NCBI GenBank assembly: GCA_902493275.1
Contig: CABUOQ010000002.1
Coordinates: 30,328 to 94,327, forward strand
Source of the DNA: an uncultured Bacillota bacterium
GTDB taxonomy: Bacteria; Bacillota_I; Bacilli_A; RFN20; CAG-449
Reading direction: 5' to 3'
DNA length: 64,000 nt
Made by a program: the position numbers and the translations under genes. The notes under the pieces are model-generated. The model was given only the letters and a program-made list of their open reading frames with translations. It was not told where the DNA came from and searched no databases. This document shows, in pieces, positions 2,136 to 39,390 of this stretch; within the stretch, counting starts at the first letter, position 1, and every line of letters begins with the position of its first letter.

Positions 2136-4404
2136 ATATACATCTATAATCTTTCGGGTAATAAATACCTAGTGAGTCGTCGCCATTATTAATTAATTTA
2201 ACTTCTTCATAATCTCCAACTTTAATTATTAACTCGCCTTTTTCTTTTAGATGTTCTTTTTTCAAATAGATAACTTTATTTTCTGAATCAATTCTTACCA
2301 AAGAGAATATTGCTTGGCAAAAAATAACTAAAATACAACTTGTCAATCCGTGATTTAAAGAAGCAAATACCGTATCATGTTCCCATAAAGTTCCTGTTAA
2401 TTCCGCCATTTTATAAAAATAAGAGATACTTTCGTCGGCAACTTCAACAAGATGATTATACTTCAAAAATATAAACAATCGCAAATAATCACCTATTAAT
2501 ACATTAGATTTATAAATTTCAGGGTATACTTTTTCATAATCTCGTGTTGGTCCGAAAAACTTTAATAAATTTTCAAATAAACTCGGATAATTTTTTTTAT
2601 TAGCAATATCAAAATAAAATGCATAATATTGACAAGTCTCAGTAATATTATTTGTTAATTCAAACTCACCATTATCATTACGGATCATATTATCAACAAA
2701 GAATGTGCCATTATAAGCATATTTTTGAATAGTTTTAATTAGTTTATGCCCTTTTTCTATCAGCGAATTATCGTTTAATAATTCTCCAGCACATATTAAC
2801 ATCTTACTATAAACCATATTGGAAGGAAAATTAATACCTTTAATGAATTCATCATCGTTAGCCTTAGACCATTCAATAAAAATCCATCCTTGAAGATTTT
2901 CTAATAAGCCAAGTTCATTTTCAAAATTTTTAAAATAGTCCAAAAGCATTTTAACTTTTGGTAAAGATTTGTCAATTAATATCTTATCTCCTGTTCTTTG
3001 ATAATAATTTTTCAATTCTAAAACATACCACATCGACCAATTTGGAATAAAATTACCATCAGGGAATTCTCCTGGATAACACATTGGGATCATATTTTTA
3101 GGTAATGTCGACATATTTTCCGCTAGAGCATAATTTTCTAAAAAATTGCGCTCTACAATGTTTTTATTAGTCAAAAGATATTCACTCATCGACGTAAAAT
3201 AGGAATCAAAAAGCCAACCTGCTCTTTCTCTCGATGGGCAATCGGTTAGAATATCGACGCTATTTTGTGCAAATGTTGAAACAGCTGCATCACAGATAGC
3301 TTGGATTCTTTTATTTTCAAATTCATATTTAAAACCATCAATAATAGTCTCATATAATCTTAAAGAAACATTATGGACTTTTATTTCTCCTTTAGCAATT
3401 ACTAAACGTAAATATTTAATGGTATATGGTTCAAAGCAAAGGTGATAAAGTCTTCCTTTTTTTATTTCATAAGAAACGATATTTTGCGTGGTATTACGAT
3501 AAAACTTTATGCTAAGTGGCACTTCTTTTCCGCATGAAGAATCAACTTCATCAAAAATAAAATATATTTCACTATCTCTCAGACATTCAATTTCAAATTC
3601 AATAAATCCGGTTTTAGACTTATCTAATTCATAAGTAATAAACGTTCCTTTTTTTAATTTGTCTATCGAATTATCAAGTGAATATTCAAGTTTTGAAATA
3701 TAGTCATTTGGATTAACTTCCCATTCATCAATTGGAAAAATTTTTAGATAATCCAGCAACATATAGCGATCGCGATAAGGCTTTTTATTTCGATTAAACT
3801 TAAATGTTCCTTTCTCTATCTGCTTAAATAATATATTAGGAAAAGTTTGATAAACTACATTTTTATTAAGATATTGTTTATGCCTAAAAATATCACATTT
3901 AACTTCCTCTAATGGATTAATTTTTCCCAATAAAAAATCTTTAAAGCTAAAATCAAAATGATACGATTCTGAAAAAGTTCTTTGAAAAGAAAAGCGCGAT
4001 ACCTTCACATAACGAGTTTTATTCAAATAACATTTAAAATCGTTATCATTAGATGTATACGCGATAACTTTGTTTCTTGTAAAAATTTCACAAACTAAAA
4101 AAGGCTCAGCACTTGAAAAGTACATTGAATTACAGCCACTAGCATAGTGTTCAATAATTATATAATGTTCACCTTTATCAAGTTCATAAGTATCAACTCT
4201 ATAAAACCTTTTAGCGGCTCTTGATGGTCCATATCCCATCAATTTACCATTATCAAATAATCTATATAATTCATTGGCCGTAATATTGATTTTAGCTTTT
4301 TCAGTCAAATTAATTCTTTGGGCAAAGAACAAAGAAATATTCATTTGTTCTAAATATTTAGTTGGATATATTGGTTTAGCTTTTTTAAAAAATTTATTTA
4401 ACAT
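2119..4404 (-). CDS. Alpha-L-rhamnosidase, GH78-like, cytoplasmic.
   Basis: It contains the GH78 catalytic-domain hallmark DCPSRERAGWLFD (DxPxRERxGW) and has no signal peptide. The track ORF extends to 4476, but the ATG at 4402-4404 (MLNKFFKKAK) is the only in-frame start with an RBS (AAGGTG); the ATGs at 4476, 4428 and 4344 have none. Start set to 4404. Confidence 0.7.
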   Translation of the reverse strand: MLNKFFKKAKPIYPTKYLEQMNISLFFAQRINLTEKAKINITANELYRLFDNGKLMGYGPSRAAKRFYRVDTYELDKGEHYIIIEHYASGCNSMYFSSAEPFLVCEIFTRNKVIAYTSNDNDFKCYLNKTRYVKVSRFSFQRTFSESYHFDFSFKDFLLGKINPLEEVKCDIFRHKQYLNKNVVYQTFPNILFKQIEKGTFKFNRNKKPYRDRYMLLDYLKIFPIDEWEVNPNDYISKLEYSLDNSIDKLKKGTFITYELDKSKTGFIEFEIECLRDSEIYFIFDEVDSSCGKEVPLSIKFYRNTTQNIVSYEIKKGRLYHLCFEPYTIKYLRLVIAKGEIKVHNVSLRLYETIIDGFKYEFENKRIQAICDAAVSTFAQNSVDILTDCPSRERAGWLFDSYFTSMSEYLLTNKNIVERNFLENYALAENMSTLPKNMIPMCYPGEFPDGNFIPNWSMWYVLELKNYYQRTGDKILIDKSLPKVKMLLDYFKNFENELGLLENLQGWIFIEWSKANDDEFIKGINFPSNMVYSKMLICAGELLNDNSLIEKGHKLIKTIQKYAYNGTFFVDNMIRNDNGEFELTNNITETCQYYAFYFDIANKKNYPSLFENLLKFFGPTRDYEKVYPEIYKSNVLIGDYLRLFIFLKYNHLVEVADESISYFYKMAELTGTLWEHDTVFASLNHGLTSCILVIFCQAIFSLVRIDSENKVIYLKKEHLKEKGELIIKVGDYEEVKLINNGDDSLGIYYPKDYRCIYVDET

Positions 4405-5896
4405 ATTGCACCTTAAATTGTAATTCATTTTCACTAAATTGTGAATTATCATAAATAAATGAATAAGGTTTAGCATCTATAATTATTTCATTATCCATTT
4501 TTTGTTTTTTTAAAGTTAGCATCATATCGCCAAAAAATAGCATATTTTTTTCTCTATTTATTTTTGAATTTAATTTAATAGTTATTTCCCCTTCTTTATC
4601 TAAAGGAAGATAAATCCAACCATTTTCAGCAACATAGTCTCTAGCATAAAAATTAAGTGGCAATTTTATCTTTATTTTTTTAGGGGAACATGGCTTAATG
4701 ACCTTTAAATTTATAATATTATTATTTAAATAAAATTCATTATCTAAAATGAAATGAATATCTTCATCCTCATATTCTTGTTTCAAAGAAAATGGAACTA
4801 CATAACAATCATCTTCTTTAAAACAACAAAAATCAGATATATATTTAAATCCATCGCCTAAGCGCATAGTGCAACAAAAATATGCCTCATATAAATATGA
4901 TTGCAATTCATACTTATCATCAATTGCACAAGTTGAACATCCTGCGCCACCATTATCTCTTTGAAAAGTTCTAATCGAATTAGTATAAATTCGATTAAAC
5001 AAATCGACATATGTCTCTTCTTTAGTGATTAAAAATAATTCTTTAGATAATATTAAACTATCGACAATGCAGCATGGTTCAGTCCAAGTATTGCTACGCT
5101 TAAACCAATTTATATTGGAGTAATCATAAGTCATACCTCTTACAATGTATTCTTTAAAAATATTCTTAGCATACTCTAAATACTTCTTTTCTTTAACGAT
5201 TTTATAAAAATTTAATATTGCTCTTGCACATGATAACGTTGCATGTGTTTGACATTCTAAATTAACATAATCAATTTTCAAAAATTCTTCAATTATAGCA
5301 ATTATAAGTTCTTTCAATCTTTGATCTTTTAAAAGCTCATATGCAGCAGTGATACCATCGAGCATAATAAATGCACACCCAACATCTGTTGAAACCTTCC
5401 AACCATTGAAAACGTTACCATCTAAACTACCTCCAACTCCGCCAAAACGACGATTATTGTCTGGATATCTTAGATAATATGGTGCAATTTGTAACAAATA
5501 ATTCTCAACTATGGATTTAACTTGTTTTAGATATTTTTCTTCTTTGGAAATTTTATAATATTCGATTAATCCTCTAAGAAACCATGAATTACCTGATACT
5601 TGTTGCTCATCAACAAATAAATCATTAAATGGCTCTCCAAAATAACCAAATTCATTTAAATTATCCTCGATATGATCAAATATATTTTTTAACTGCATTA
5701 AAATATCATCCTGCATTTGCTTATATCCATCAAACGCATGATATAAAGAAGTTAATGCTAAAATATCTCTTCCTTGAAAATCTCCCGGCCACGAACCGCC
5801 TTGATCAAAGAGTTTTTCAGATTGATAAATCGGATCGCTTAATCTATTGCGATTTAATTTCATTCTGCGATATAGATCACCTAAGATTTTTTTCAT
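4394..5896 (-). CDS. Cytoplasmic Cys-rich protein, putative glycoside hydrolase of unknown family.
   Basis: A 500-aa ORF with a strong RBS (GGGGAG) and no signal peptide, embedded in a glycan-utilisation operon. It has three CC dipeptides (TEPCC, YFCCT, DFCCF) reminiscent of Zn/Cys-dependent glycosidases. The family is not recognised with confidence. Confidence 0.35.
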   Translation of the reverse strand: MKKILGDLYRRMKLNRNRLSDPIYQSEKLFDQGGSWPGDFQGRDILALTSLYHAFDGYKQMQDDILMQLKNIFDHIEDNLNEFGYFGEPFNDLFVDEQQVSGNSWFLRGLIEYYKISKEEKYLKQVKSIVENYLLQIAPYYLRYPDNNRRFGGVGGSLDGNVFNGWKVSTDVGCAFIMLDGITAAYELLKDQRLKELIIAIIEEFLKIDYVNLECQTHATLSCARAILNFYKIVKEKKYLEYAKNIFKEYIVRGMTYDYSNINWFKRSNTWTEPCCIVDSLILSKELFLITKEETYVDLFNRIYTNSIRTFQRDNGGAGCSTCAIDDKYELQSYLYEAYFCCTMRLGDGFKYISDFCCFKEDDCYVVPFSLKQEYEDEDIHFILDNEFYLNNNIINLKVIKPCSPKKIKIKLPLNFYARDYVAENGWIYLPLDKEGEITIKLNSKINREKNMLFFGDMMLTLKKQKMDNEIIIDAKPYSFIYDNSQFSENELQFKVQYVK

Positions 5897-5973: not shown

Positions 5974-8214
5974 TTATTTTGCAATAGCTGTTAATTCTAC
6001 AGTAACAGCATTAACGTAAATTGTTCCTGTTGAGCCTGCATCTGGTGCAAAGAAAGAGAAGAAATCAACTGTTCTATTTGCTACCCATGTTATTTCACTA
6101 TGATGATAACCTAATTCAACACTACCAATATCTAAGAAGACATTGTTATCAAAGTTATACATAAATCTTCCACCATTCCATGTTTTCACATAGTAGTCTA
6201 AAGATATTTTATATGTATGTGTATTTTCAATTCTTCCATTACCTTGGAACCATTCAGTAGTAGTATTACCATTTTTAAAGACCAATTTCTTAGGTGCACT
6301 ACCCATTGCTTCATTAGCAATTACATCATTATCTCCATCAAAATCACCAACTGTTCTAGTTGCATCATCGCAATTTCCAAATTGACGAGAATCTTGTGAG
6401 AATGTAAAGCCTACTTTATGTCCATTTGGAGTTTGATCATCTGGAATAGCTTCAGCCTCTTCTAATTTTGCAACAACGCTACCAATATAAATTTCAAAAG
6501 AAGGGTTATTAGCGCCATAAATATTTAATTGATTCCATCCGCTTTGAATTGTACCTTCATATTTAATACAGAAGATTCCATTACCGACATCAATAGTTGT
6601 TGTTGGCAATGTTGGATTACCATTATCTCCCATCATAATAAGACATAATCCGCCACTATTGACACCATAATAATAGATTTCGATGGTTAATTTTTTACCT
6701 TCGACCATATTATTTTTTGTTAATCCAGTAAATAAGTGACCATCAGCGTTAGTTAATTTTAAAGCATTGTTAGTAAATTTATCACTAGCAATCATTGCTT
6801 GTTTTGCAGTTTCATTTTCAATATTGTTAATTATAACGGCTTCACCATTAGTTGCACCTGCGCCTTTATCATCCATATTCCATGTAAATCCGGTTTCAGT
6901 TGATAATTGCTCACTTGTTGGAACAACAGCTTGAATTTGAGCGATTTCTTTAGAGCTAATTTCCAAATTATCAATAGCGATAATTGCATCAGTAGTTGAA
7001 CCACTTAATTTAAAGAAACCAAACCATGCATTTCCAGTTTCAGGAACAATCGTTCCAGGGAAAGTAAATGATGCTGTATGCACTTCATTGACTGTTGTGT
7101 TGCTATTAATAAAGTTTTGATTTAATCCATTAGAACCATCCCAGTTCATTTGAACATAGAAATCAGAGAAATTAGCTGCGGAAGCAGATAAAATCTTATA
7201 TGAGAATGAAACTGTATAAGTCGCAGAAATTCCACGATGGAAATAATCATTGAATTGATTCATGAAAATACAATTAGATGCGCTTCCTGCAGTTCTATTA
7301 GCATCTAATATCAATGAGTTACCTGCAATAGCATCTTCTCCACCTGAAAGGTGTGTAGCATTATTAGAATCTGCCATTGAACGATATGTTGGAGAACGTG
7401 TGCCTTGAGCAAAATTCTCTTTAAATGTGCCATATTCAGTCATGGTTGAAGGATCTTGGAATCCTGTTACATCAAATGTTTCCTCATGAGCTGGTGTAAC
7501 ATTAATAACAATTTCCTCTTCAGCGAAAAGTTCTGAGTCAGTTGGATCTTCAACATAGTAAGCTATTCTATGCTCTCCAGCAATGTTTGCTTTAAACTTA
7601 CCATCTTTAATTGATCCAGTTTCATTTAAGTCTTCCAATTCAATAGAACTTGTTAAATCATTACCACGATAATCTTTAGCACTAACAGTAGGTAATGTTA
7701 ACTCTTCACCAACTTTGACTGTATATTGTTTTACAGATGGCATAGTAAATACAGGTGCGCTGGCTTCTTCAACAACAATTGTAACTTTACCTGTTTTCGC
7801 TCCATCTGTTGAAGTAGCAATAACATCTGCAGTTCCTTTAGCCACGGCAGTTACTTGTCCAGTTTCATCGACAGTCAAAACCGCTGTATCTGATGAAGAT
7901 AAAGTATATGTTTTATCATCGGCAGTTTCTGGTAATACTGTAACCGTAACAGTTGTTTTATCACCAACAAATAAATTAGTTTTTTCAGCGGTAATAGTTA
8001 CGCTTTCGACATGAATAACTTCCTGTGATGAACTAGAAGATGATAATACTTCTTCACTGGAAGATTCTGAAACTTCTTCACTAGAAGATTCGTTAGATGA
8101 AATACTTTCACTAGAGGATAATGAACTGGAATTGTTGTTATTATTACAACCAGCTAATCCAACAGAAAGTATGGCTGCCAAACAGACAGCAAAGGGCATA
8201 ATTTTCTTTTTCAT
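5974..8214 (-). CDS. Surface lipoprotein with a Ser-rich tether, a Big_2-type Ig-like domain and a large C-terminal region of unknown, possibly carbohydrate-binding, function.
   Basis: Lipobox LAGC after MKKKIMPFAVCLAAILSVG, followed by a poly-N/S/E low-complexity linker. Big_2-like segment: VESVTITAEKTNLFVGDKTTVTVTVLPETADDKTYTLSSSDTAVLTVDETGQVTAVAKGTADV. Confidence 0.5.
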   Translation of the reverse strand: MKKKIMPFAVCLAAILSVGLAGCNNNNNSSSLSSSESISSNESSSEEVSESSSEEVLSSSSSSQEVIHVESVTITAEKTNLFVGDKTTVTVTVLPETADDKTYTLSSSDTAVLTVDETGQVTAVAKGTADVIATSTDGAKTGKVTIVVEEASAPVFTMPSVKQYTVKVGEELTLPTVSAKDYRGNDLTSSIELEDLNETGSIKDGKFKANIAGEHRIAYYVEDPTDSELFAEEEIVINVTPAHEETFDVTGFQDPSTMTEYGTFKENFAQGTRSPTYRSMADSNNATHLSGGEDAIAGNSLILDANRTAGSASNCIFMNQFNDYFHRGISATYTVSFSYKILSASAANFSDFYVQMNWDGSNGLNQNFINSNTTVNEVHTASFTFPGTIVPETGNAWFGFFKLSGSTTDAIIAIDNLEISSKEIAQIQAVVPTSEQLSTETGFTWNMDDKGAGATNGEAVIINNIENETAKQAMIASDKFTNNALKLTNADGHLFTGLTKNNMVEGKKLTIEIYYYGVNSGGLCLIMMGDNGNPTLPTTTIDVGNGIFCIKYEGTIQSGWNQLNIYGANNPSFEIYIGSVVAKLEEAEAIPDDQTPNGHKVGFTFSQDSRQFGNCDDATRTVGDFDGDNDVIANEAMGSAPKKLVFKNGNTTTEWFQGNGRIENTHTYKISLDYYVKTWNGGRFMYNFDNNVFLDIGSVELGYHHSEITWVANRTVDFFSFFAPDAGSTGTIYVNAVTVELTAIAK

Positions 8215-8263: not shown

Positions 8264-11200
8264 TTATTTAAAATAATATTGTGTCATTCTCGCAGTTTTA
8301 GTTTTGTTATCTTCAACGAAGTGAGGAATATTTCCCATTTGAACACGTTTCAAACCTTCATTTTGTCTTTCGGCATCAGCAACAATAATCGCAATATCTA
8401 TTTGTTTTCCATCATCGATTGCTTGTTTAAATTCTGGTGCTAACTCAAAAGGAATTAACACTTCCCCAACATAACCATCACTCTTACTTGTAAACGCTAC
8501 TTCCACTTTTGATTTATCATTTATATATTTTGGATTTGTACGTACATCAGAAAAAGTGAAATAATTATGATTAGTCCAAGTTGGAGCAAATGCGGCTTGC
8601 AAAACACCTCCTTTCTCTTTGTATACTTGCATATCAGCACTTGGCATATCGGTAATAGTTGACATAAATAATTCAACGCAATCACCTAGCCAAAAATCAG
8701 AAACAGTTTTAACATTTAATAAATTATCAAAAACATCAAACCCCAAATATATGCCTTTTTCGTTATAAGTCATCATTAACTTATTTATTGCGAAATGATC
8801 TTTCAACTCCTCTGCAGTTCTTGCACTACCTTCAGCATCAGATATGCCTAATATATCAATATTGGTAATTTCATTGTTCTCCCAATCAGATAATTCACCA
8901 TTGACATTTATAGTTTTTGTTGTTGCTTTGATATCAACCTCAGGTCCAGCCTCACCATTGGCTTTGAACGCAATATTGTAATTGCTATCGTTAATCGATA
9001 TATCATTTGGTGATGAGTTACCCTCAAAAGTAACTCCACTTAGGCCTTTATCCAATGTATAGTAATTATAATTTCCATCTAAGACGATATCTTCACAGTT
9101 GACACATTGTAATAATGTATTAAAACTATCGCCAGAAGGTTGAATATAAGAGCAATCATAGAATAGATTATCGTTAATATTACTATCCCCTACCCCTCTT
9201 AAAGAAATAGAAGCATTACCATTTTTAGCAATAAAATTGTTCTCAATAGTCGCTCCATATAAAGTACCTTTTTGAGCTACGGTACCATTATTTGAAATTG
9301 CAAATATAGAAATATCACCATAAAGAGGTTCAGGCTTAATGTAGCAATTATTAATAAATTTATTATTCTTGATAGTTATATTTTGAGCTAATGTCGCTTC
9401 GTTATATACATCCATTGAAGAAGCCGCCTGAATAGCGCCATGTCCTACATTCATAAAGGTATTATTTTCAATCACAGCATCTGGAACTTGAATTAAAACG
9501 CCTCTATTTCTTTTATTACGAATGATATTATTTGAGAAAACTAACTTAGGTGTATTTGATAAAAAAGTTACACGGCAATTTCCCCATTCACCAACATTAG
9601 ACATTCTTTCTTTTACTTTAAAATCATATCCAACTGAAGTTTTTGTTACTTCTTGAATAGTGTAATATCCATTTGTAGGATTATGTCCTTCAAAGGTTTG
9701 TTCATTATAGACTGCTATTTTATCCCCTACTTGCGGTTCTGTTATTGCACTAGTAATTTTTGCAACTGACATTGATTTAGTACTTCCTCCTTCAGCTGCT
9801 GTTAATTTATACCAATATCCGTGTTTAATATTCATCGCATCATCATGTGAATTTTCAATTAAACTATTAGTTATTTGCACATCATTGTTCATGCTATTAA
9901 AATGCATTGCATCGGCAGTCGCAGTCATTAATGAAGCACTATTTTCTTTTAAAGATAAACTAAATCTATTAACATAAAGATTACTTGTTGAAGAAGAGGT
10001 TAAAGCCATTCCCGAAGCATGGTGCATAGTTATTCCTTCTAAATAAACATTTTCAGAATTTGTTATAGAAATTCCTACAGCATCATATTGCGAGAAAGAA
10101 ACAGCAACTAAAGTACCATTTCTAGGTCTAGAAATACCTGCATTAGAGAAAGTAACTTCAATTTGATAAGAAGTGCTTTCATCACCAGAAATGTCATATG
10201 TTTTAAATGCATCAACTAAGAAATTTCCACCCTCTAATGGTGTTCTATTTATTTGTCCAAATTCAACCCATGATCTTATTGATTTTTTATTAGTGATCAA
10301 TTTTTTTACTAAAGGATCAAACTCATGGTCTACTTCAATAGTTAATTTGTTATTATTTATATCACCCGCGACAATTTTGCCAGTTAAAGAGGAAGGCAAT
10401 TTAGCATCAAGAGTTATTCCGTTTAAATAAAGATTTTTACAATTATCAACAGCAAAATATCCTTTCCAATTTAAATCATTTGTAATAATAACTAAAGAAG
10501 TATTATCTCCTTCAATATAAGTACCATTTAATCCATTTAAAGATAATGTTTGACTAGAATCACTTAAATATGCTTCAAGTTCTATTTCACCACTAGGTAA
10601 TTTTATTTTTGCTTCTTTACCAGCATCGTTTAATTCTTTAGCTAAGTAAATAGCTGTTTGAAGGCGATAATAATTATTAAGTGTTCCATCTTTAAAATAT
10701 TTTTGCACTTGGCTTAATTGAATATCATTAAATTTAATGATGGATTCTGATTGCATATCAGCATCTTTTTTTACCGGATATTTTTCAACAATTAAATCTT
10801 GATTAACACCGACTAATCCTTCATCAGTTAATCCATATTTTTCTTGTGATGTTAATTCGCCATTAGAATAAGGAGATTCACTAAGTTTTTCAACAAGCTG
10901 TGAGACACTCAAATTTTTATTTGGATCATCTTCTATTACTTCAAGTTCTACCGAATCAGTTTTATTATTATCGTTAGTAGTTACACTTACTGAACAAGTA
11001 CCACTTTTTTTAGCGGTAACCACTCCAGTCTCAGAGATTTCTACACAATCATTACTAGCACTATAAGTAACCATTTTATTTGTTGCAGTTGCTGGAAGAA
11101 TTTCAGTTACCAATTGTCTTGATTCTCCAACTTTTAAAATATTATTATTTATTGTTAATGATACACTTTCAACTGGTATTAAAACCTGTGAACCTTCACT

Positions 11201-11314
11201 AGATGAATTATTACCATTAAATGAACTACTTCCAGTTTGATTATTACATGACGTTACAAATGGTAGGATTCCAATTAAAGCAACTAATGGTAATATGAAA
11301 TTTCTCTTTTTCAT
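8264..11314 (-). CDS. Surface lipoprotein with a Big_2 domain, a right-handed parallel beta-helix (pectin-lyase fold) putative glycanase and a C-terminal CBM9-like domain.
   Basis: Lipobox VTSC plus an S/N-rich tether. Big_2: VESVSLTINNNILKVGESRQLVTEILPATATNKMVTYSASNDCVEISETGVVTAKKSGT. Beta-helix-type repeats: NNIIRNKRNRGVLIQ, NNTFMNVGHGAIQ, NNKFINN, ENSHDDAMNIKHG. The C-terminus has a CBM9-like GDCVELF motif. Confidence 0.55.
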   Translation of the reverse strand: MKKRNFILPLVALIGILPFVTSCNNQTGSSSFNGNNSSSEGSQVLIPVESVSLTINNNILKVGESRQLVTEILPATATNKMVTYSASNDCVEISETGVVTAKKSGTCSVSVTTNDNNKTDSVELEVIEDDPNKNLSVSQLVEKLSESPYSNGELTSQEKYGLTDEGLVGVNQDLIVEKYPVKKDADMQSESIIKFNDIQLSQVQKYFKDGTLNNYYRLQTAIYLAKELNDAGKEAKIKLPSGEIELEAYLSDSSQTLSLNGLNGTYIEGDNTSLVIITNDLNWKGYFAVDNCKNLYLNGITLDAKLPSSLTGKIVAGDINNNKLTIEVDHEFDPLVKKLITNKKSIRSWVEFGQINRTPLEGGNFLVDAFKTYDISGDESTSYQIEVTFSNAGISRPRNGTLVAVSFSQYDAVGISITNSENVYLEGITMHHASGMALTSSSTSNLYVNRFSLSLKENSASLMTATADAMHFNSMNNDVQITNSLIENSHDDAMNIKHGYWYKLTAAEGGSTKSMSVAKITSAITEPQVGDKIAVYNEQTFEGHNPTNGYYTIQEVTKTSVGYDFKVKERMSNVGEWGNCRVTFLSNTPKLVFSNNIIRNKRNRGVLIQVPDAVIENNTFMNVGHGAIQAASSMDVYNEATLAQNITIKNNKFINNCYIKPEPLYGDISIFAISNNGTVAQKGTLYGATIENNFIAKNGNASISLRGVGDSNINDNLFYDCSYIQPSGDSFNTLLQCVNCEDIVLDGNYNYYTLDKGLSGVTFEGNSSPNDISINDSNYNIAFKANGEAGPEVDIKATTKTINVNGELSDWENNEITNIDILGISDAEGSARTAEELKDHFAINKLMMTYNEKGIYLGFDVFDNLLNVKTVSDFWLGDCVELFMSTITDMPSADMQVYKEKGGVLQAAFAPTWTNHNYFTFSDVRTNPKYINDKSKVEVAFTSKSDGYVGEVLIPFELAPEFKQAIDDGKQIDIAIIVADAERQNEGLKRVQMGNIPHFVEDNKTKTARMTQYYFK

Positions 11315-13405
11315 TTAATCTATCTCCTTTTTTTCATTATCTTGTTCTATTTGACCGCTGCAATTAGCAAATTGAATTAATTCAAATGCATCATTATTAA
11401 TAGCCAATAAAACATTATTATAAATATTTATCTCTTCTGAAGTTTCGACACTCATTATTAATGAAGTTCTCTTAGTTGTGTAATGAAATAAATTATTATG
11501 AATTTTAGTATTTTTATTTGCTAAAGCCCAAATATTTGTTCCATAGCCATTAGTAAAATAATTATTGTAAATGTCAACGTTTTGAATTGTTCCACTTACA
11601 CATTTAGAAGTATTATCTCCATATGCAAATACACTTAAATCATTATAATTATTGATAAATTTATTGTTTGCTATAACTATATCTTGAGGTACAATCGCCT
11701 CTTTGAATATATCATTAACCGCTAGAACTTGAATTGCTCCCATAACAACATTTTCAAAAGTACAATTGACTATCTCAGATTCTCTAGATTGCAATAAAAT
11801 GCCCCTATTTCTTTTATTTCTAATAATGCAATTGTTCAATTTTAGCTTTGTGACTCTTGTAGCATTACCAACATTTAATCCAACTGTAACTTTTGACGGT
11901 CTTTTATCGACTGTTAAGGTATAGGATGTACCTATTTTTGAAATATCTACAATTGTAAATGAATCAATTAGTCCCATAGTTGTTGGCTCGTAAACGTCTA
12001 TCTTATCACCCTTTTCAAAAGGAATGGCAACTTCATTTTGGGTTTGAGCAATATCTATCTCTTTAGAACTAGCATTAACACTTGTTACTCTTGTATAGAA
12101 AGATTTAATATTTAATGCATCGTCATGACTACTTTCTAGTAAACAATTTGTTATATTAAGATTACCTTCTAAAGCAATAGTGTGAATGATATCTGCTGTG
12201 CAAGTCATAATTCTGGAAGATCCTTCTTTAACAGCGAAATTAGTTCTATTTAAATAAACGTTTTTACCATTTTCAATTCGCATTCCCATCCCACCAGTAA
12301 CGTGAACTAAAACATTTTCAAAATAGACATCATCGCATTTAACAAAGTGGAATCCGTGATTTTCATACATGGTATAAGCAAAAGAAACGTGAGTACCGAC
12401 TTCTGGATCTTTATATTCAGTAGTACGATAAGGGAAATTAGCATTTAACGTTAATGCTAGTTCTCTTTTAATCTCATCATAATTTATATCAAGAACCCCT
12501 CTAGAAGAATCACTTGTAGGAGAATTATAAAATAAATTTTTATTTCGATCAGGTACATATCTCTGGGTATTATTATCAAAATAGCATTCCATATAAGAGC
12601 ATGTTTTCTTTTGATAATTTTTATAAATTTCTCTTTCTAGATGAAATTCTTCTGGAATATCCAAATAAACAACCGGATTAGAATCAACTCTTTCAACTCT
12701 TTTTACCACTCCACCAATGGTAGGAGAATTCTCCATATCAAAAGTTATATTATTTAAATGAATGTTACTTGAAACTTTTGCTTCAAAATATGTTCCCCAT
12801 CCACTATAGATAAACTGAGTTCCCTCTTCACCTACTAGATATAAATCTTTAATTCCCGTTACATCAACAGTGGAAGTAAATTTATATACATCACCATTAA
12901 ATTTAACAATTTTGATACCTTCAACATCTGTGATATTTGCTAATAATATTGATAAATTACCCGAATTATTTTGTCCTGTAGGAGTTATATTATAATCTTC
13001 AGCTAAATATATGTGACCCTCATTAGGACATGGATATAATTCTTCATTTTCAAATTTTTCTTTATCAACACCAACTTCTTTAATATTCGATAATCCCATA
13101 TTTTCTTTTTCCTTCATATCATCTTTAAATGGTGATGAACCAAGATTAGTTAATATTTCATCTCTTTCAAGATAATTTTCATCAATGAAACTTGATGATT
13201 CACTATCTGATGAACTTAGCGATTCACTACTTGATAAGCTTGAATTTTCACTTTCTAATGAAGATTCATCAAGAGAAGATTCACTAACTACAGAAGATAG
13301 GCTTGAACTATTCAAACTAGAACTTAAGCTAGAAGAATTGCTATTTGTGCAAGAAAATGAAGTTAATAAAAACAATAGAAATACTATTTTACCTTGATTT
13401 TTCAT
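11315..13405 (-). CDS. Surface lipoprotein, right-handed beta-helix putative glycanase, paralogous to 8264-11314.
   Basis: Lipobox FSCTNS with a long Ser-rich tether. Shares motif blocks with the neighbour: ESSHDDALNIKSF versus ENSHDDAMNIKHG, and NNCIIRNKRNRGILLQ...ENVVMGAIQ versus NNIIRNKRNRGVLIQ...MNVGHGAIQ. Tandem duplicate. Confidence 0.55.
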   Translation of the reverse strand: MKNQGKIVFLLFLLTSFSCTNSNSSSLSSSLNSSSLSSVVSESSLDESSLESENSSLSSSESLSSSDSESSSFIDENYLERDEILTNLGSSPFKDDMKEKENMGLSNIKEVGVDKEKFENEELYPCPNEGHIYLAEDYNITPTGQNNSGNLSILLANITDVEGIKIVKFNGDVYKFTSTVDVTGIKDLYLVGEEGTQFIYSGWGTYFEAKVSSNIHLNNITFDMENSPTIGGVVKRVERVDSNPVVYLDIPEEFHLEREIYKNYQKKTCSYMECYFDNNTQRYVPDRNKNLFYNSPTSDSSRGVLDINYDEIKRELALTLNANFPYRTTEYKDPEVGTHVSFAYTMYENHGFHFVKCDDVYFENVLVHVTGGMGMRIENGKNVYLNRTNFAVKEGSSRIMTCTADIIHTIALEGNLNITNCLLESSHDDALNIKSFYTRVTSVNASSKEIDIAQTQNEVAIPFEKGDKIDVYEPTTMGLIDSFTIVDISKIGTSYTLTVDKRPSKVTVGLNVGNATRVTKLKLNNCIIRNKRNRGILLQSRESEIVNCTFENVVMGAIQVLAVNDIFKEAIVPQDIVIANNKFINNYNDLSVFAYGDNTSKCVSGTIQNVDIYNNYFTNGYGTNIWALANKNTKIHNNLFHYTTKRTSLIMSVETSEEINIYNNVLLAINNDAFELIQFANCSGQIEQDNEKKEID

Positions 13406-13407
13406 AG

Positions 13408-15147
13408 CTATTTACCTTGATTATATCGATTTAATGCATCGTTATAGCATTTTAGCAATTTATCGGCATCAAATCCTTTGAGTTCATTTATCAAACTTTG
13501 ATAGCTTTCCTCATTATAAGGATCTTTGCCATCAACCCCTCTTACATAACATGACTCTAAGTATTCTAATTGAGGATCTAATGCTGCTTTTATCGTTGTC
13601 ACATCCCCATATTCTGTGCCACTTAATTTAATTTCTCCTGGTTCAGGATTTTTTAAATAAGGTAAATATTTGCGCGACATTTGATTTAATGAAGTAATAA
13701 TATCATCATTCATTTTTTCAACAAAATCAGCGGACCAATAAAGTGCAGATGCACTTCCAACATTTGGAGTAATAGTTGCTCGATATTGTTCTTGATTTCC
13801 AGTCCAAGTAGATGGAACATTGAAAGTCCATGAAGTATGCTCTTCATTATCCCAATTCCAGTTTTCACCTTCAACACCATATGAGATCAATTGTGTTCCT
13901 AAATCGCTATACATTATATCTAATAATCTTGCTACTTCTCTAACATAAATTGATTTTTGAGGGATAGTCGCGCCATCTGGAATAAAATATCCTAATCCTA
14001 AATGTAAAGGATTACCTGTATAATATGAAGAAGTAAGCGGACCAAAAGTCACATAGTTGCTCTCATAATCATAACCAACTATCAAATATGCAGCTGCGGC
14101 AACAAAACTACCTAATCGATTTTTCATTCCCGTTAATGCTAATTGGTTGTCAGTTTTATTTGAAAAAGTACTGACATCCATCAAACCTTCACTCCACAAG
14201 GTATTCATAAATTGAAGATATTTTCTATATGCCTCAGTATATGGAACATAGGTGAAACTAGATTGATTGTTTTCAATTTCAACTCCGTATGAAACATAGC
14301 CATAACTTGCTAAAACAAAGTTTCTTAAATACTCTAATGATTTTGAAGTCACAGGTATTTCATCGTTAGAATCATCATTTAAATTAGCATCTAGCTCTTT
14401 AAAAGCTCTCAATACAGTTAAGTATTCCTCAATGGTTTTAATTTCATCAGCTTTTGGAAGAAGTTTACCATTATACCCTCCGAATTCATTATTAATATTT
14501 TCAATCCATTGCTCATTGATAAACATCTTAAATGTTAAATCTCGAGCAACATCATTTACAGATAAAGTTGAATACATTTTTCCATCACTTAATGTTACAA
14601 CTTTCTTTGCATCACTTTTTTGTATATCTACACCAAAATTATTTTCTAAGCCTTTTTTATAATTAGGCATATAATTATCAATAATATTGCCAACTTGAAT
14701 TGTTGATTCACCTACTTTATAAGAATAATTATCATCATTAAATGGAACATAAGCATCGTAATTTCTTTCAGCATATCGTACCAATTCTGAAATTGAATTA
14801 TTAAATAAAAATAGATCTGGAATTGTGCTATCGGATGACCACGCTCCAGTTCTTTGATTGGTATAAGCTGAAGTATCCGGGGTGGTGAATTCAAAATTTA
14901 ATCCTGTAATTTCTGATAAGTGTTTAAACATTACTAAATCTTTATATTCAGGATTTCCAGCACTATGTGGGGCAAATATTTTTATTGTTACTGGATCTTT
15001 AACTATCCTATATGGATTATCCTCTGTTCCGTTAGGTAAAAAATTATCAGGATTATAACTTCTATTTGATCCGGTACATCCAACAAGTGCTCCTAAAGAT
15101 AAAACCACACTTGCTATTATTGATGATATTTTTTTTATTTTGTTCAT
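13408..15147 (-). CDS. ABC transporter extracellular solute-binding lipoprotein (CUT1 family, large LplA-like type).
   Basis: Lipobox LGALVGCTGS. A 579-aa secreted protein immediately downstream of two CUT1 permease genes in the same operon. Confidence 0.65.
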   Translation of the reverse strand: MNKIKKISSIIASVVLSLGALVGCTGSNRSYNPDNFLPNGTEDNPYRIVKDPVTIKIFAPHSAGNPEYKDLVMFKHLSEITGLNFEFTTPDTSAYTNQRTGAWSSDSTIPDLFLFNNSISELVRYAERNYDAYVPFNDDNYSYKVGESTIQVGNIIDNYMPNYKKGLENNFGVDIQKSDAKKVVTLSDGKMYSTLSVNDVARDLTFKMFINEQWIENINNEFGGYNGKLLPKADEIKTIEEYLTVLRAFKELDANLNDDSNDEIPVTSKSLEYLRNFVLASYGYVSYGVEIENNQSSFTYVPYTEAYRKYLQFMNTLWSEGLMDVSTFSNKTDNQLALTGMKNRLGSFVAAAAYLIVGYDYESNYVTFGPLTSSYYTGNPLHLGLGYFIPDGATIPQKSIYVREVARLLDIMYSDLGTQLISYGVEGENWNWDNEEHTSWTFNVPSTWTGNQEQYRATITPNVGSASALYWSADFVEKMNDDIITSLNQMSRKYLPYLKNPEPGEIKLSGTEYGDVTTIKAALDPQLEYLESCYVRGVDGKDPYNEESYQSLINELKGFDADKLLKCYNDALNRYNQGK

Positions 15148-15158
15148 AGATTTCTCCT

Positions 15159-16025
15159 TTATCCTTTAACGCCACCAATAGTGACACCCTTTTCAAAATA
15201 TTTTTGAAAGAATGGGTAAATAATTAGAAGTGGTAATGATGAAACAACTATAGTTACATATTTTAGTTGTTCAGATAGATTGACATCTGTCCCTCCACCA
15301 ACTGAAGATTGATTTGAAATTAAAATATTATTTAATACATTTTGCAACGGCAATAACGATGAATCTTGTACGTACATAAGAGCATTGAAATATGAATTCC
15401 AATAACCAACCACAGCATATAAAATCATAACTGCAATTATTGGTCTACATAATGGTAGGACAATGCGAGTAAAGATTCTTACATCGCCACATCCATCAAT
15501 CATAGCTGCTTCTTGCACTTCCATAGGAATTGAAGATTGCATATAAGTACGAATAACAATGATATTAAAAACTGATATGCATCCTGGAAGAATAATTGCC
15601 CAAATTGTATTATAGAGTTTTAATTGTTGAATCAATAAATAAGTTGGAATCATTCCTCCTGAAACAAACATTGTTAATACTAAAAATAAATTAACAAACT
15701 TTCTACCTTTAAAGTCTCTTCTAGATAATGGATAAGCGCACAAAACTTGGCATGTAACCTGAATAACTGTTCCAATCGCTGTATAAATCAATGAATTTTT
15801 AAATCCTCGCCAGATGGTTTCATTTTTTAAAATCATCTTATAACCATCTAAAGTAAATTCCTGTGGAAATAGTCCAACTTCACCAGAAATAACTGCATCT
15901 GCAGAAGAAAAAGAAGAAGCGAGAACATTTATCAATGGGAATAAGAATATCAAAGCAATTATCCCCATAATAATCATTATAATTACATCAAATATTTTAT
16001 CTTTGCCTTTACTTGAACGATTCAT
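15159..16025 (-). CDS. ABC transporter permease, CUT1 family (LplC-like).
   Basis: Six predicted transmembrane segments and an EAA-loop (EAAMIDGCGDVRIFTRIVLPL). Confidence 0.8.
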   Translation of the reverse strand: MNRSSKGKDKIFDVIIMIIMGIIALIFLFPLINVLASSFSSADAVISGEVGLFPQEFTLDGYKMILKNETIWRGFKNSLIYTAIGTVIQVTCQVLCAYPLSRRDFKGRKFVNLFLVLTMFVSGGMIPTYLLIQQLKLYNTIWAIILPGCISVFNIIVIRTYMQSSIPMEVQEAAMIDGCGDVRIFTRIVLPLCRPIIAVMILYAVVGYWNSYFNALMYVQDSSLLPLQNVLNNILISNQSSVGGGTDVNLSEQLKYVTIVVSSLPLLIIYPFFQKYFEKGVTIGGVKG

Positions 16026-16040
16026 GATTTGCTCCTTTTA

Positions 16041-17012
16041 TTACCATAAAGAATTATCGCTAACTTTTTTAGAGATAAAATTACCTAAGCATAAAATGAT
16101 AATGTTAACTACAGAATTAAATAATCCTATTGCCGTAGCATAAGAATACTGAGCCTCACCATATTTTGGAAAAGATATATTATACACATAAGTAGCAATT
16201 ATATTAGAAGAGGATAAATTAGTTGATAATTGCATCAAATACACTTTTTCAAAGCCAACGCTGAGAATATTGCCAATTGACATAATAAACATAATAACCG
16301 CTAGAGGAATAATCTGAGGTAAATTAACATAGAAAATTCTTCTGATTCTTCCAGCGCCATCAATAATTGCAGCATCATGAAGATTTGGATCGACATTAGA
16401 AAGGCTACCCATATAGACAATAGACCACCAACCAAGTCCTTGCCATAATCCTGAAACGACATAAATCATACAAAAGTAATCTGGATTTTCCATTAAATTT
16501 GTAGCGTCAAATCCAAAAAAAGCAAATATTCTAGTAAATATTCCGCTATCAACTCTAAAGAACGCAAATAACATTCCTACTAAGACTGATATTGAAATAA
16601 AATATGGAGCGTACATTATTGTTTGAATTAATCTTTTATATTTTTTAGCTCGAACTTCATTTAACAATAACGCAAAAATTATTGGTAAAAGAGAGTTAAA
16701 AAATATCGAAGCTAATGACAAAGTCAAAGTATTTTTTAAAATTGTATAAAAATTAGGCGCGGTAATAAACGTATAAAAATGCTTAAACCCTCCCATACTT
16801 GTCCATGGTGAATCAAAAATACCTCTAAAAGAATCGTAATCTTTAAAAGCAATAACTAATCCTGTTAAAGGTAAATAATGAAATATAAAAATATATATGA
16901 GTGTTGGTAAAGTCATTATAAAAAGAGCAAGACCAATTTTAGAATACCATTTTCTTTTTGCTGGTGTTCTAGATAATGTTTCGATTTCTGTTTTAGATAC
17001 TTTTGCTTCCAT
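16041..17012 (-). CDS. ABC transporter permease, CUT1 family (LplB-like).
   Basis: EAA-loop (HDAAIIDGAGRIRRIFYVNLPQI) and polytopic. No ATPase gene is present in this operon. Confidence 0.8.
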   Translation of the reverse strand: MEAKVSKTEIETLSRTPAKRKWYSKIGLALFIMTLPTLIYIFIFHYLPLTGLVIAFKDYDSFRGIFDSPWTSMGGFKHFYTFITAPNFYTILKNTLTLSLASIFFNSLLPIIFALLLNEVRAKKYKRLIQTIMYAPYFISISVLVGMLFAFFRVDSGIFTRIFAFFGFDATNLMENPDYFCMIYVVSGLWQGLGWWSIVYMGSLSNVDPNLHDAAIIDGAGRIRRIFYVNLPQIIPLAVIMFIMSIGNILSVGFEKVYLMQLSTNLSSSNIIATYVYNISFPKYGEAQYSYATAIGLFNSVVNIIILCLGNFISKKVSDNSLW

Positions 17013-17325: not shown

Positions 17326-18177
17326 ATGACCAAAGAATCTTTTTTTAATAGAAGTTTATGTTTTAGAAATATAACTGATAATTTTAACTCTGACATCAGC
17401 GCTTCGATAATTGGATATGAAGCGTGCAATAAAAATAAACCAATTATTGATTCAAATAAATCATGCTATATAATTCATTTTATTGCAAAAGGCTCTGGTT
17501 TTTTAATAAGTCATAATAAAAAAGAAATAATTCATAAAAACGAATGCTTCCTAATTGAACCAAATTCTCACGTTAAATATCGTCCTAATCCTCGTGATCC
17601 TTGGTCATATTTTTGGATTGAAATAAATGGCAATCTTTTTAAAAAAATATGTGAGCGAATTGATTTTAAGAAAAACAATATGCACTTAAAATTAGAGCAC
17701 TTTAATGAAATCATCGATGAATTTATCGAGATTTTCGATGAGACATTATACATTCACAATCAATATAGTGAATTTCTTCGAATCAGTAGTAAAATTATGA
17801 ACATTTTTTCAAGATTAATCGAAGAGTATTGCATTGAAGATTCTTCTGATTCTTTAACAAAAGAAGAATCACAAATCAAAAAAATAATTGAATACGTCAA
17901 TAATAACTACACTTCACCAGATATTTCTATAAATAAAATTGCTAACCACTTTTATTTTTCTCAGGCATATCTAACGAGAATATTTAAAAAAAGCACCGGT
18001 ATTTCTCCAATGAAATATATCATAATGTTAAGAATGAGACGCAGTGTCGAGCTATTGAATAAAAAAACGTTTTCAATTTCTCAAATCGCTTATTGTATTG
18101 GTTATAAAAACCAATTCTATTTTTCAAAAGAATTTAAAAAGTACTTTGGATTATCACCTTCAAAGTACAATAATTAA
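17326..18177 (+). CDS. AraC-family transcriptional regulator (cupin-type N-terminal ligand domain plus C-terminal HTH).
   Basis: RBS AAGGAG. The N-terminal cupin-like region (FWIEINGNLF) and the C-terminal AraC HTH (ISINKIANHFYFSQAYLTRIFKKSTGISPMKYI) are both present. It is divergent from the ABC importer operon. Confidence 0.7.
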   Translation: MTKESFFNRSLCFRNITDNFNSDISASIIGYEACNKNKPIIDSNKSCYIIHFIAKGSGFLISHNKKEIIHKNECFLIEPNSHVKYRPNPRDPWSYFWIEINGNLFKKICERIDFKKNNMHLKLEHFNEIIDEFIEIFDETLYIHNQYSEFLRISSKIMNIFSRLIEEYCIEDSSDSLTKEESQIKKIIEYVNNNYTSPDISINKIANHFYFSQAYLTRIFKKSTGISPMKYIIMLRMRRSVELLNKKTFSISQIAYCIGYKNQFYFSKEFKKYFGLSPSKYNN

Positions 18178-19484
18178 TCTTTTTTTGTTAAATCTTTTCT
18201 TTCAATATTATTAAAATCTGATGAATCAAAATATTTATTATCCTCAAAGGTTTCTTGTTCATTAGATGTTTCTTCATCTACATCATAATCCTTTTTTAGA
18301 TATCTTTCATCTATTGCCCATGTATCACAAATAATATCTTGTAAAGATCTTTTTCGTTTATTAATTAAGATGAAAAATAACGAGATAAAACATATAATAT
18401 CACAAATTAAAATAAGAGAGAAATTAGAAAAACCCACTCCATTTATTTCAAAAAATGGATACATTATTCCCGAATTTAATCCACCGCTTAAAACAGTAGA
18501 AAAAAGCATCAACCCATAGAACATTACAAAAGAGCAAATATTTCTGAATATCTTTTGTTTAGTTATTAATTCATATCCATCTTTATCGACAACTTTGATT
18601 TTTAATAGTTTTTTCCCAATTGTCTTCATGTCTTTAAAAATTAATTGAGGTAGAATAATCGTTAAAAAGAATGATAAAAGATAGCATCCAAAAGTAACAT
18701 AATCAATTATATAAGAACATTCAGCATAATTCTTTTTATATACATCATAGTGAGCTTTAAAGCGCGTTGAATTTATCAATTCATCGACTTGCTTATTCCA
18801 TAAATTTTGGAAAGCAACTGCTAAATAATTATAATTTGACACTCCAGCTTGATAGTTTTTATCGTTTAAATGTTTATATAATTCAATAGCGTAATCTGCA
18901 TCTAAATAAGGTAAAATCAAACTTTCTTCATCAAAATTCCACATTTCTATATTGACTGACGCATTTTTTAATTCTTTATAGAAAAAGAGCTTTGGATCAT
19001 CTTTACCAAATGAAACTATATTATCATTTTCATTATATTTAGGAACATAATTAACATAAAAATACGCTAAAGGATCGCTCTCATATGAAGCAATCTCAAG
19101 ATTGTTAGGATTTTCAATCTCAATTCCATAAGTTAAAAATAAACTATTATCAATTGAATATGAATATAATATATGTCTTAAACAATAGTCACGGAAAATA
19201 TCTTCTTGTTCACGTGGAGTTTTATATTGATGGTTTTCATTATCAATAAATTCATATATTTTAGCCTCTTCTTCTATTTCATAGCACGAAATAATTTCCT
19301 GGTTCAATGTATTTATTTTGCCTTTATAAGCAGGAATAATATCTAATATCCCATGTGAAGAAATAAGCAAAACAAAAGATATGACAATAAGTAAAAGCGC
19401 ATCGATAATATGCGCTTCAATTCTTCTACTAGCAGATGAATTTATTTCGTTCTTATATGGTCTTAGATAACCTTTTTTCTCCAT
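18174..19484 (-). CDS. RDD-family membrane protein carrying an approximately 230-aa soluble insertion.
   Basis: RDD hallmarks: N-terminal SRRIEAHIIDALLLIV (R..ID next to TM1) and C-terminal RSLQDIICDTWAID. There is a large non-membrane insert between TM1 and TM2. RBS GAGGAG. It sits 9 nt downstream of the ATPase gene. Confidence 0.45.
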   Translation of the reverse strand: MEKKGYLRPYKNEINSSASRRIEAHIIDALLLIVISFVLLISSHGILDIIPAYKGKINTLNQEIISCYEIEEEAKIYEFIDNENHQYKTPREQEDIFRDYCLRHILYSYSIDNSLFLTYGIEIENPNNLEIASYESDPLAYFYVNYVPKYNENDNIVSFGKDDPKLFFYKELKNASVNIEMWNFDEESLILPYLDADYAIELYKHLNDKNYQAGVSNYNYLAVAFQNLWNKQVDELINSTRFKAHYDVYKKNYAECSYIIDYVTFGCYLLSFFLTIILPQLIFKDMKTIGKKLLKIKVVDKDGYELITKQKIFRNICSFVMFYGLMLFSTVLSGGLNSGIMYPFFEINGVGFSNFSLILICDIICFISLFFILINKRKRSLQDIICDTWAIDERYLKKDYDVDEETSNEQETFEDNKYFDSSDFNNIERKDLTKKD

Positions 19485-21226: not shown

Positions 21227-21351
21227 ATCTTGCTCCTTTTTCATAGCTTAGTTTAGCAAAATATATATTTTGACGGAAGCATATAAGGCTTTTATATCAG
21301 TATTTTGCTATAAATAAGTCAAAAAAATATATATTCTTCAAGTATTAACTA

Positions 21352-23375: not shown

Positions 23376-23376
23376 A

Positions 23377-39302: not shown

Positions 39303-39390
39303 ATAAAATCTTTTTAAATAAAAATCGCTAATAAAAGCGAGTTTTTGAGATATATATTTAAAGAATAATTACTTATTCCCTTGTATGCAA

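Follow-up and report, generated by a model that had tools for sequence, protein, structure and literature searches.

Tandem surface lipoproteins related to GH110 glycoside hydrolases in a conserved, rhamnose-linked locus of an uncultured gut Bacillota bacterium

Introduction

A 64,000-nt stretch of DNA from an uncultured Bacillota bacterium (contig CABUOQ010000002.1 of assembly GCA_902493275.1, positions 30,328 to 94,327; hereafter the window) carries two adjacent genes, A and B, for predicted surface lipoproteins, and raises the question of what these proteins do at the cell surface and on which glycan they might act. The original prediction, made from the sequence alone, described them as paralogous beta-helix proteins and as possible endo-acting depolymerases, either endo-rhamnosidases or lyases, of a rhamnose-rich glycan. 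We arrive at a different answer: A and B are best explained as lipid-anchored surface glycoside hydrolases from a divergent clade of family GH110, encoded within a locus for the harvesting of a rhamnose-containing glycan, a reading to which we assign a probability of roughly 0.7.

Both open reading frames were recovered on the minus strand (Table 1), as were all four peptide motifs through which the two products had been linked. The proteins are indeed tandem paralogues: BLASTP aligns them at 30% identity over 489 positions (A 254-719 with B 177-641; E-value 6e-54), a relationship which, at this E-value, is far beyond chance. A tblastn search of the whole window retrieved no third copy. The TAA stop codon of B is followed without a gap by the ATG of A (11312-11317), and an AAGGAG ribosome-binding site is located inside the 3' end of B.

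Relationship to family GH110

The GH110 enzymes of solved structure considered here are PdGH110B (7jw4/7jwf), GH110A (9beh/9bev), AgaBb (8yk1-3), AmGH110 (8pvs) and PpaGal (9i4f). When compared with all PDB chains by phmmer, both proteins matched only GH110 alpha-galactosidases over the core, namely 9i4f (6e-24), 8pvs (4e-17), 7jw4 (2e-15), 9beh (5e-15) and 8yk1-3 (~1e-8) in the case of A, and 9beh (6e-14), 8pvs (1e-13), 7jw4 (8e-13) and 8yk1-3 (~1e-9; weakest 1.5e-9) in that of B. A profile built from 33 A-type orthologues matched the same structures with E-values of 1e-32 to 1e-23. AlphaFold modelled A with confidence (pLDDT 88.4, pTM 0.79), and the model resembles beta-helix enzymes; its top 15 PDB matches in Foldseek are all GH110 enzymes (E 2e-30 to 2e-24, target TM up to 0.79), and the next class, consisting of K1 lyase, RbmB, a GH28 exo-polygalacturonase and the P22 tailspike, appears only near 1e-7. 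Structure prediction followed by comparison with GH28, lyases and tailspikes, which had been proposed as a check, thus placed A closest to GH110. The beta-helix character attributed to the two surface proteins is supported for A by this model and its structural matches; B is predicted to share the fold from its homology to A and to the solved GH110 structures.

The characteristic GH110 fold, a beta-helix that is parallel and right-handed, with two inserted beta-barrels, can be recognized in A, where the barrels correspond to extra residues (~305-405 and 500-585) that align with GH110. The second of them lies between the DD and R-x-R motifs, which are separated by ~105-110 residues, as in PdGH110B. 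Identity of the A/B group to the crystallised GH110 enzymes in structural alignments is only 15-20%. A hidden Markov model (HMM) of length 608, built solely from sequences of the clade that contains the crystallised enzymes, gives E-values of 9e-61 with A and 3e-51 with B, in both cases over positions 93-577, or ~80% of the model. Because this canonical-clade HMM scores both proteins, they would be assigned to GH110 by a CAZy-style criterion, that is, by significant similarity of the catalytic module to characterised members; the same result suggests that the CAZy/dbCAN model of GH110 would recognise them. Membership of A and B in the GH110 superfamily of hydrolases is, in our estimation, very highly probable.

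The catalytic centre

In the inverting enzyme PdGH110B, D344 is the general acid and D321 and/or D345 the base (PMC7939477); the equivalents in AgaBb, also inverting, are D351 (acid), D328 and D352 (PMC11368712). Such an acidic Asp triad is the hydrolase machinery of the GH28/49/87/110 type (PMC7939477). Since the chain index of PdGH110B coincides with its residue numbering, exact equivalences could be read from the HMMER alignment. The triad is formed by D468, D491 and D492 in A and by D405, D428 and D429 in B, with the 23-residue spacing of PdGH110B; it shows no variation among the orthologues compared, 33 of A type and 20 of B type, and the catalytic residues are essentially invariant over 149 superfamily representatives, the crystallised enzymes among them. 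Ligands of the substrate are kept as well. N348, R453 and E488, which line the -1 subsite of PdGH110B, correspond to N495, R604 and E639 in A and to N432, R534 and E569 in B, and the +1 ligand R451 to R602 and R532, all of them invariant in the orthologues of A and B.

The two sequence blocks that the original prediction regarded as diagnostic of the pair are therefore the GH110 acid/base motif, contained in ENSHDDAMNIKHG of A and ESSHDDALNIKSF of B, and the GH110 Arg-x-Arg substrate-binding motif. The odd order of motifs (D, then DD, then R-x-R) that had been remarked upon is real, and is exactly the GH110 order. The earlier argument that the proteins do not belong to GH28 also stands: the NTD / DD / GHG / RIK order of that family is not followed, and a Pfam scan of the cores returned neither Glyco_hydro_28 nor a pectate-lyase model, the Beta_helix model being found in A and in B only below threshold. 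Enzymes of the clan GH-N type (GH28 polygalacturonases and rhamnogalacturonases, GH49, GH87) differ further in that they lack the two inserted beta-barrels and align over only ~300-370 residues.

A separate clade with altered sugar-binding residues

An exhaustive phmmer search of 1.84 billion representative sequences with the core of A retrieved 1640 relatives at E<1e-3, including 98 at E<1e-30. In a neighbour-joining tree of the cores, itself a crude one, all five crystallised GH110 enzymes fall into one clade, which is followed by two intermediate uncharacterised clades and then by a large further clade in which A-type and B-type proteins form separate subclades. The A/B clade thus appears separate from the crystallised enzymes and wholly uncharacterised; the suspicion that the pair represents a different or poorly characterised beta-helix group proved well founded, the group being an uncharacterised clade of GH110 type.

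Several residues that contact the sugar in characterised GH110 enzymes are altered. The strongly conserved Arg that binds O2/O3 of galactose (R265 of PdGH110B, R270 of AgaBb) aligns with an invariant Tyr (A Y410, B Y347); this match was taken from HMMER alignments, both pairwise and with profiles, because the large alignment cannot be trusted at column 410 where distant sequences are concerned. The AgaBb residue has the additional role of recognising the blood-group fucose (PMC11368712). The Trp platform (W486, AgaBb W509) is replaced by Tyr in A (Y637) and Phe in B (F567), and the N-terminal Asn N85 is paired with a non-conserved Asp (D252) in A, so that in these alignments none of the three GH110 positions is retained. 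E480, the position at which GH110A and GH110B differ (E480/R460) and on which accommodation of a 6-sulfate depends, corresponds to Ala in A and to Leu in B. Conversely, the clade conserves features of its own: a His before the DD pair, Lys601, Asn603 and Gln609, as well as an extra N-terminal region with a motif (G161-L162 ... V168-G169 ... Y179) that canonical GH110 enzymes lack. The motifs of A and B accordingly read 'SHDD' and 'NKRNRG', as opposed to 'M/L-x-DD' and 'NNRARG' in known GH110. As the O2/O3 Arg has given way to Tyr and the Trp platform to Phe or Tyr, specificity may differ from that of the classical enzymes; judging from the sequences, the sugar and linkage recognised are probably not the classical Gal-alpha-1,3-Gal or the blood-group-B epitope.

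Surface anchoring and accessory domains

Each protein begins with a signal peptide and a lipobox, as anticipated. The lipobox of A (VTSC at Cys23) is canonical, and C23 is at least 90% conserved in the 33 orthologues; that of B (SFSC at Cys19) conforms to the PS51257 pattern only, its Cys being invariant in 20/20 orthologues. Signal peptides ending in a PS51257 lipobox Cys are likewise present in the product of the downstream gene C (C23) and in the substrate-binding protein (SBP) of the adjacent importer (C24), and lipidation is predicted for all four. The long Ser-rich tether that had been ascribed to both proteins exists in B (~54 aa), that of A being short (~20 aa, 7 Ser).

The fusion of one member of the pair to Big_2 and CBM9-like domains is also upheld. 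The Big_2 domain is readily detected in A, and the C-terminal domain of A superposes clearly on the CBM9 modules 1i82 and 7nwn (target TM 0.74, Foldseek); support from the family model is marginal, with 23.9 bits against a cut-off of 23.4 for Pfam CBM9_1 when the C-terminal 237 aa were scanned alone, and PF06452 is precomputed in several A orthologues. The domain by itself matched no PDB sequence, and the CBM9-like call hence draws on Pfam and on the fold. In known GH110 enzymes, which lack the lipid anchor of A and B, the carbohydrate-binding module is instead a CBM51. PdGH110B forms dimers, one chain of which extends a helix to the active site of the other; with an active site shared between subunits in this way, and with A and B encoded by abutting genes, one can conceive of an A/B heterodimer.

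Genomic context and distribution

A and B are embedded in an eight-gene module with the order permease-permease-SBP-B-A-C-GH127like-GH78like (Table 1), the gaps through the upstream transporter genes measuring 2-15 nt. Relatives were found at 54 loci of a species-level genome collection, with the module syntenic in ~45 of them, down to 35% identity; the exact protein A is also present in the Logan assembly of run SRR23947518. Because the module is syntenic across genomes, it follows that A and B were duplicated long ago and retained together. The carriers are mostly uncultured gut Bacilli ('Mollicutes UMGS', Coprobacillus sp. CAG:826, Firmicutes CAG:449, Candidatus Onthovivens and Candidatus Enteromonas), which we take to be members of the RF39 lineage, and copies of ~35% identity occur in Christensenellales-type Clostridia. 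Loci of the Bacilli have a MalK-type ATPase, an RDD protein and an AraC regulator upstream and often a PocR-AraC regulator downstream; the flanks of the Clostridia loci (SpoIVA, a hybrid kinase, an oxidoreductase, one GH2) offered no clue to the substrate. Four syntenic copies (L035, L036, L041 and L056) come from metagenome-assembled genomes (MAGs) entitled Bacteroides uniformis, Prevotella sp. or Lachnospiraceae, titles which probably reflect binning contamination. Literature searches on GH110-like enzymes and on RF39 glycoside hydrolases brought up nothing relevant.

Gene C always follows A (~45 genomes). The model of its product (pLDDT 83) yields matches to generic multi-sandwich or CBM-like folds only, without any catalytic fold, and at the sequence level Big_2 alone was found, with no family assignment; C is possibly a surface glycan-binding protein. 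A perfect 13-bp stem hairpin (5921-5952) lies in the 77 nt that separate C from the GH127-like gene, and could be an internal attenuator or RNA-stability element dividing the genes for surface proteins from those for cytoplasmic ones.

Neither the GH127-like nor the GH78-like protein has a signal peptide or a lipobox. In the former, E273-P-C275, C320, C323 and C341-C342 are invariant in 45 orthologues, a Cys pattern that suggests a Cys/Zn glycosidase site; the E-P-C ... C-C arrangement resembles the zinc/cysteine site of GH127 beta-L-arabinofuranosidases. The protein has no sequence relative in the PDB. The cytoplasmic GH78 protein to which the original prediction had drawn attention is present in the operon as a GH78-like protein without signal peptide. 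Its listed start overlaps the GH127-like gene by 83 nt, and the true start is probably a downstream Met (M17, M25 or M45).

A link of the locus to rhamnose, part of the same prediction, is borne out both by the GH78-like protein and by the genes rhaB, rhaA and rhaD directly adjacent. RhaA and RhaD pass the NCBIfam equivalog cut-offs (612.8 > 572 and 318.8 > 170, respectively); the kinase matches rhamnulokinase best but remains below the cut-off (422.9 < 527.95). The neighbouring ABC ATPase is unusually long (583 aa), with a Lys-rich N-terminal extension of ~85 aa and a ~75-aa insertion in the ABC domain; its relatives are of equal length and always have the RDD-family membrane protein next to them. 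At the edge of the window, a truncated gene of the fucose-isomerase superfamily (3-1211, minus strand) matches sulfoquinovose isomerase weakly (91 bits against a cut-off of 700), and in the relative L004 the same position is held by Fucose_iso_C followed by an FGGY kinase, which suggests that a second sugar-catabolic branch is attached to the locus.

Elsewhere in the window, two tRNA genes (39230-39467, minus strand) are the sole Rfam matches at gathering score, and the GC content rises from ~0.30 to 0.34-0.37 at 48-62 kb, within a run of short minus-strand ORFs. A promoter scan was uninformative (133 sites versus 129 expected).

Table 1. Position of genes A and B, their domains and catalytic residues, and neighbouring genes in the window
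Feature	Position	Strand	Description or basis
Gene A	8264..11314	-	1016-aa lipoprotein: signal peptide/lipobox, short linker, Big_2, clade-specific N-terminal region, GH110-like core with two inserted beta-barrels, CBM9-like domain
A signal peptide and lipobox, residues 1-23, Cys23	11246..11314	-	PS51257 and strict L-x-x-C patterns both match
A Big_2 immunoglobulin-like domain, residues 47-119	10958..11176	-	Pfam PF02368, E 4e-12; fold match 7quz Big_2
A GH110-like catalytic core, residues 256-749	9068..10549	-	
A Asp468 (PdGH110B D321), candidate general base	9911..9913	-	HMMER alignment; invariant in orthologues
A Asp491-Asp492 (PdGH110B D344, general acid, and D345)	9839..9844	-	Within ENSHDDAMNIKHG
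A C-terminal CBM9-like domain, residues 780-1016	8267..8977	-	Pfam CBM9_1 and Foldseek
Gene B	11315..13405	-	696-aa lipoprotein: signal peptide/lipobox, long Ser-rich tether, clade-specific N-terminal region, GH110-like core; no Big_2, no CBM9
B signal peptide and non-canonical lipobox, Cys19 (SFSC)	13349..13405	-	Looser PROSITE PS51257 only
B Ser-rich tether, ~residues 20-75	13181..13348	-	31 Ser in residues 21-80
B GH110-like catalytic core, residues 180-664	11414..12868	-	Canonical-clade HMM E 3e-51, HMM positions 94-576; PDB phmmer 9beh 6e-14, 8pvs 1e-13
B Asp405 (PdGH110B D321)	12191..12193	-	
B Asp428-Asp429 (PdGH110B D344/D345)	12119..12124	-	Within ESSHDDALNIKSF
PocR-sensor AraC-type regulator	1281..2135	-	Operon end
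GH78-like protein, cytoplasmic, remote alpha-L-rhamnosidase homologue	2119..4476	-	Pfam Bac_rhamnosid6H 1.3e-18; PDB 2okx RhaB 1.6e-13; no signal peptide
GH127-like (alpha/alpha)6 protein, cytoplasmic	4394..5896	-	Invariant E273-P-C275, C341-C342
Gene C	5974..8214	-	746-aa lipoprotein: Ser-rich tether, Big_2, second Ig-like domain, three beta-sandwich modules
SBP lipoprotein of ABC (ATP-binding cassette) importer	13408..15147	-	No Pfam hit; position, lipobox, conserved synteny
Two ABC permease genes	15159..17012	-	BPD_transp_1
AraC-family regulator	17326..18177	+	Divergent, upstream of permease genes
RDD-family membrane protein	18174..19484	-	Conserved upstream in Bacilli versions
MalK/UgpC-type ABC ATPase	19493..21244	-	Conserved upstream in Bacilli versions
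L-rhamnose genes: kinase, RhaA, RhaD	21352..24684	-	Directly beside ABC ATPase, same strand
AraC/cupin regulator of rhamnose cluster	24792-25601	+	

Weighing the alternatives

GH110 is known only for exo-alpha-1,3-galactosidases, whose value lies in converting cells and organs of blood group B and in degrading lambda-carrageenan. That A and B are ordinary enzymes of this kind would agree with the presence of blood-group-B enzymes (9i4f, 8pvs, 8yk1) among their closest solved relatives, with the retained triad and four retained -1 ligands, and with carriers that are gut bacteria; we nevertheless deem it improbable, given that their clade lies apart from all crystallised GH110, that Tyr stands in place of the O2/O3 Arg, which is fucose-recognising in AgaBb, and that the partners are GH78-like and GH127-like proteins and rhamnose catabolism, not fucosidases, sialidases or hexosaminidases, the known GH110 enzymes being found in a mucin or carrageenan context. 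Galacturonic acid (GalA) might take the place of galactose, in which case A and B would act on pectin, either on GalA-alpha-1,2-Rha of the rhamnogalacturonan I (RG-I) backbone or on RG-II fragments, and the C6 carboxylate would be bound by the Arg that is retained and by K601 of A, the Lys specific to the clade. GalA is galacto-configured, so N495, E639 and R604 could still fit; the clade-specific K601, N603 and Q609 flank the R-x-R motif; and at the position (E480/R460) that governs the room at C6 in GH110A/B, A has a small residue, Ala. RG-I yields rhamnose, and an RG-II locus of B. thetaiotaomicron reportedly has GH78, the beta-helix GH141 and GH127 side by side. However, uronate-catabolic genes (uxa/kdg) were not seen in the annotated part of the window, the locus has no pectin esterase, lyase or GH28, and the argument consists of residue chemistry read from alignments; we would be surprised if this explanation proved correct.

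The role originally favoured, that of an endo-acting depolymerase of a rhamnose-rich polymer (a tailspike-like endo-rhamnosidase) or of a beta-helix polysaccharide lyase, has some attractions. The rhamnose context is real, surface enzymes that precede an oligosaccharide importer are expected to make oligosaccharides, and the +1 side and the N-terminal region of A and B are unlike canonical GH110; moreover, beta-helix hydrolases of the clan-N type include endo enzymes, and GH28 is listed with alpha-L-rhamnosidase activity. Against it, the top sequence and structure matches are all GH110 alpha-galactosidases and the Asp triad is of the hydrolase type. P22-type tailspike endorhamnosidases, PL1, PL6, PL9, the K1/K5 lyases and RbmB act on rhamnose-containing or acidic polysaccharides and have the generic parallel beta-helix in common with A and B, beyond which no specific similarity to tailspikes or beta-helix lyases was detected. 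Nothing in the analysis supports the term 'endo-acting', and we regard the whole proposal as a poor prospect; its lyase variant was rejected, since the Asp triad of the active centre is the same as that of GH110 hydrolases, and a lyase is scarcely credible. Finally, A and B could be non-catalytic beta-helix adhesins or S-layer-type proteins, the outcome which the original prediction itself named as fatal to it. The full GH110 catalytic apparatus has stayed invariant over deep divergence in both paralogues and the genes lie within a transporter/glycosidase operon; because the triad is invariant, we consider A and B enzymes rather than adhesins, and have rejected this last possibility as extremely improbable.

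Our preferred reading, in which A and B are surface hydrolases of a divergent GH110 clade, has its own difficulties. The GH110-specific Pfam models for GLAA-B beta-barrels I and II find no match in A or B at E <= 1, while the control P0073 matches both (2e-27 and 4e-22), and NCBIfam has no match for A or B, nor for C, the SBP or the GH127-like and GH78-like proteins. The traceable members of the clade are all 'hypothetical' proteins from MAGs, and the names of ten representatives read 'hypothetical' or 'beta-helix repeat' protein throughout. Changes affect two, perhaps three, of the GH110 galactose ligands, hence the sugar could be another one, and no galactose-catabolic genes were seen near the locus. 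The structure papers describe the characterised GH110 enzymes as exo-acting, on oligosaccharides, and release of monosaccharides alone does not explain how an importable oligosaccharide would be obtained from a polymer.

Proposed function

By homology with the characterised enzymes, an activity, a -1 sugar, a mode of attack and a substrate can be proposed for A and B. Hydrolysis would proceed by single displacement with inversion: the first Asp of 'SHDD' (A D491, B D428) would protonate the glycosidic oxygen, and activation of the attacking water would fall to the second Asp of this motif (A D492, B D429), to the Asp upstream of it (A D468, B D405) or to both. The -1 sugar would be held by an Asn (A N495), a Glu (E639) and an Arg (R604), together with the aromatic platform formed by Y637 in A and F567 in B, and would most probably be alpha-linked and galacto-configured or a close analogue. 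A galacto-configured sugar in this subsite is what we would expect, if without great assurance; plain alpha-D-galactose seems rather doubtful, and endo action, or the release of oligosaccharides, unlikely. At the cell surface, A would be tethered through Big_2 and targeted by its CBM9-like module, B carried on its long Ser-rich stalk, and lipoprotein C would bind the glycan, so that the three together might act outside the cell on a rhamnose-containing glycan, probably of plant origin, which they would trim or cut. Fragments would be taken up by the adjacent ABC importer and broken down completely in the cytoplasm by the GH127-like and GH78-like enzymes, and the freed L-rhamnose would enter the neighbouring RhaA/RhaB/RhaD pathway.

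Side chains of type II arabinogalactan or of gum-arabic-like polymers are an attractive substrate class; RG-I/RG-II and bacterial rhamnose-rich polysaccharides are possible as well. Arabinogalactan and gum-arabic-like side chains bear beta-L-arabinofuranose (Araf). Plant glycans with terminal alpha-1,3-Gal as well as alpha-Rha exist: the gum arabic oligosaccharide S5GA displays terminal Gal-alpha-1,3-Araf and Rha-alpha-1,4-GlcA on the same molecule (PMC8367640). The overall organization of the locus recalls the gum arabic and extensin systems of Bifidobacterium longum, which similarly combine tethered extracellular enzymes, a lipoprotein SBP with two permeases, cytoplasmic exo-glycosidases and AraC-type regulators; there, a surface enzyme frees an oligosaccharide, the ABC importer imports it and an intracellular GH36 or GH127 finishes the degradation (PMC8367640). 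The extracellular enzymes are GH110-like here, in contrast to GH39, GH121 and GH43 in B. longum, and all five glycan-active proteins of the present locus are remote from characterised ones.

Significance

We regard A and B as a divergent variant of a known family with a possibly new specificity, within a conserved locus of uncultured gut bacteria, rather than as a new kind of system. Should they prove to be plain alpha-galactosidases, the finding would amount to routine annotation. We tentatively suggest that the clade marked by the Tyr/His/Lys signature (~100 cluster representatives at E<1e-30) represents a new specificity in or beside GH110, and that the surface pair, possibly as an A/B heterodimer, cuts or uncaps a plant glycan bearing rhamnose and arabinofuranose, such as arabinogalactan-protein or pectin side chains, as a signature foraging system of uncultured, genome-reduced gut Bacilli and of Christensenellales. 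A large uncharacterised sister clade with changed sugar-binding residues could add a new activity to the GH110 family. At the same time, the locus provides a handle on the diet of an uncultured genome-reduced gut lineage, and could guide the choice of substrates for its enrichment or cultivation.

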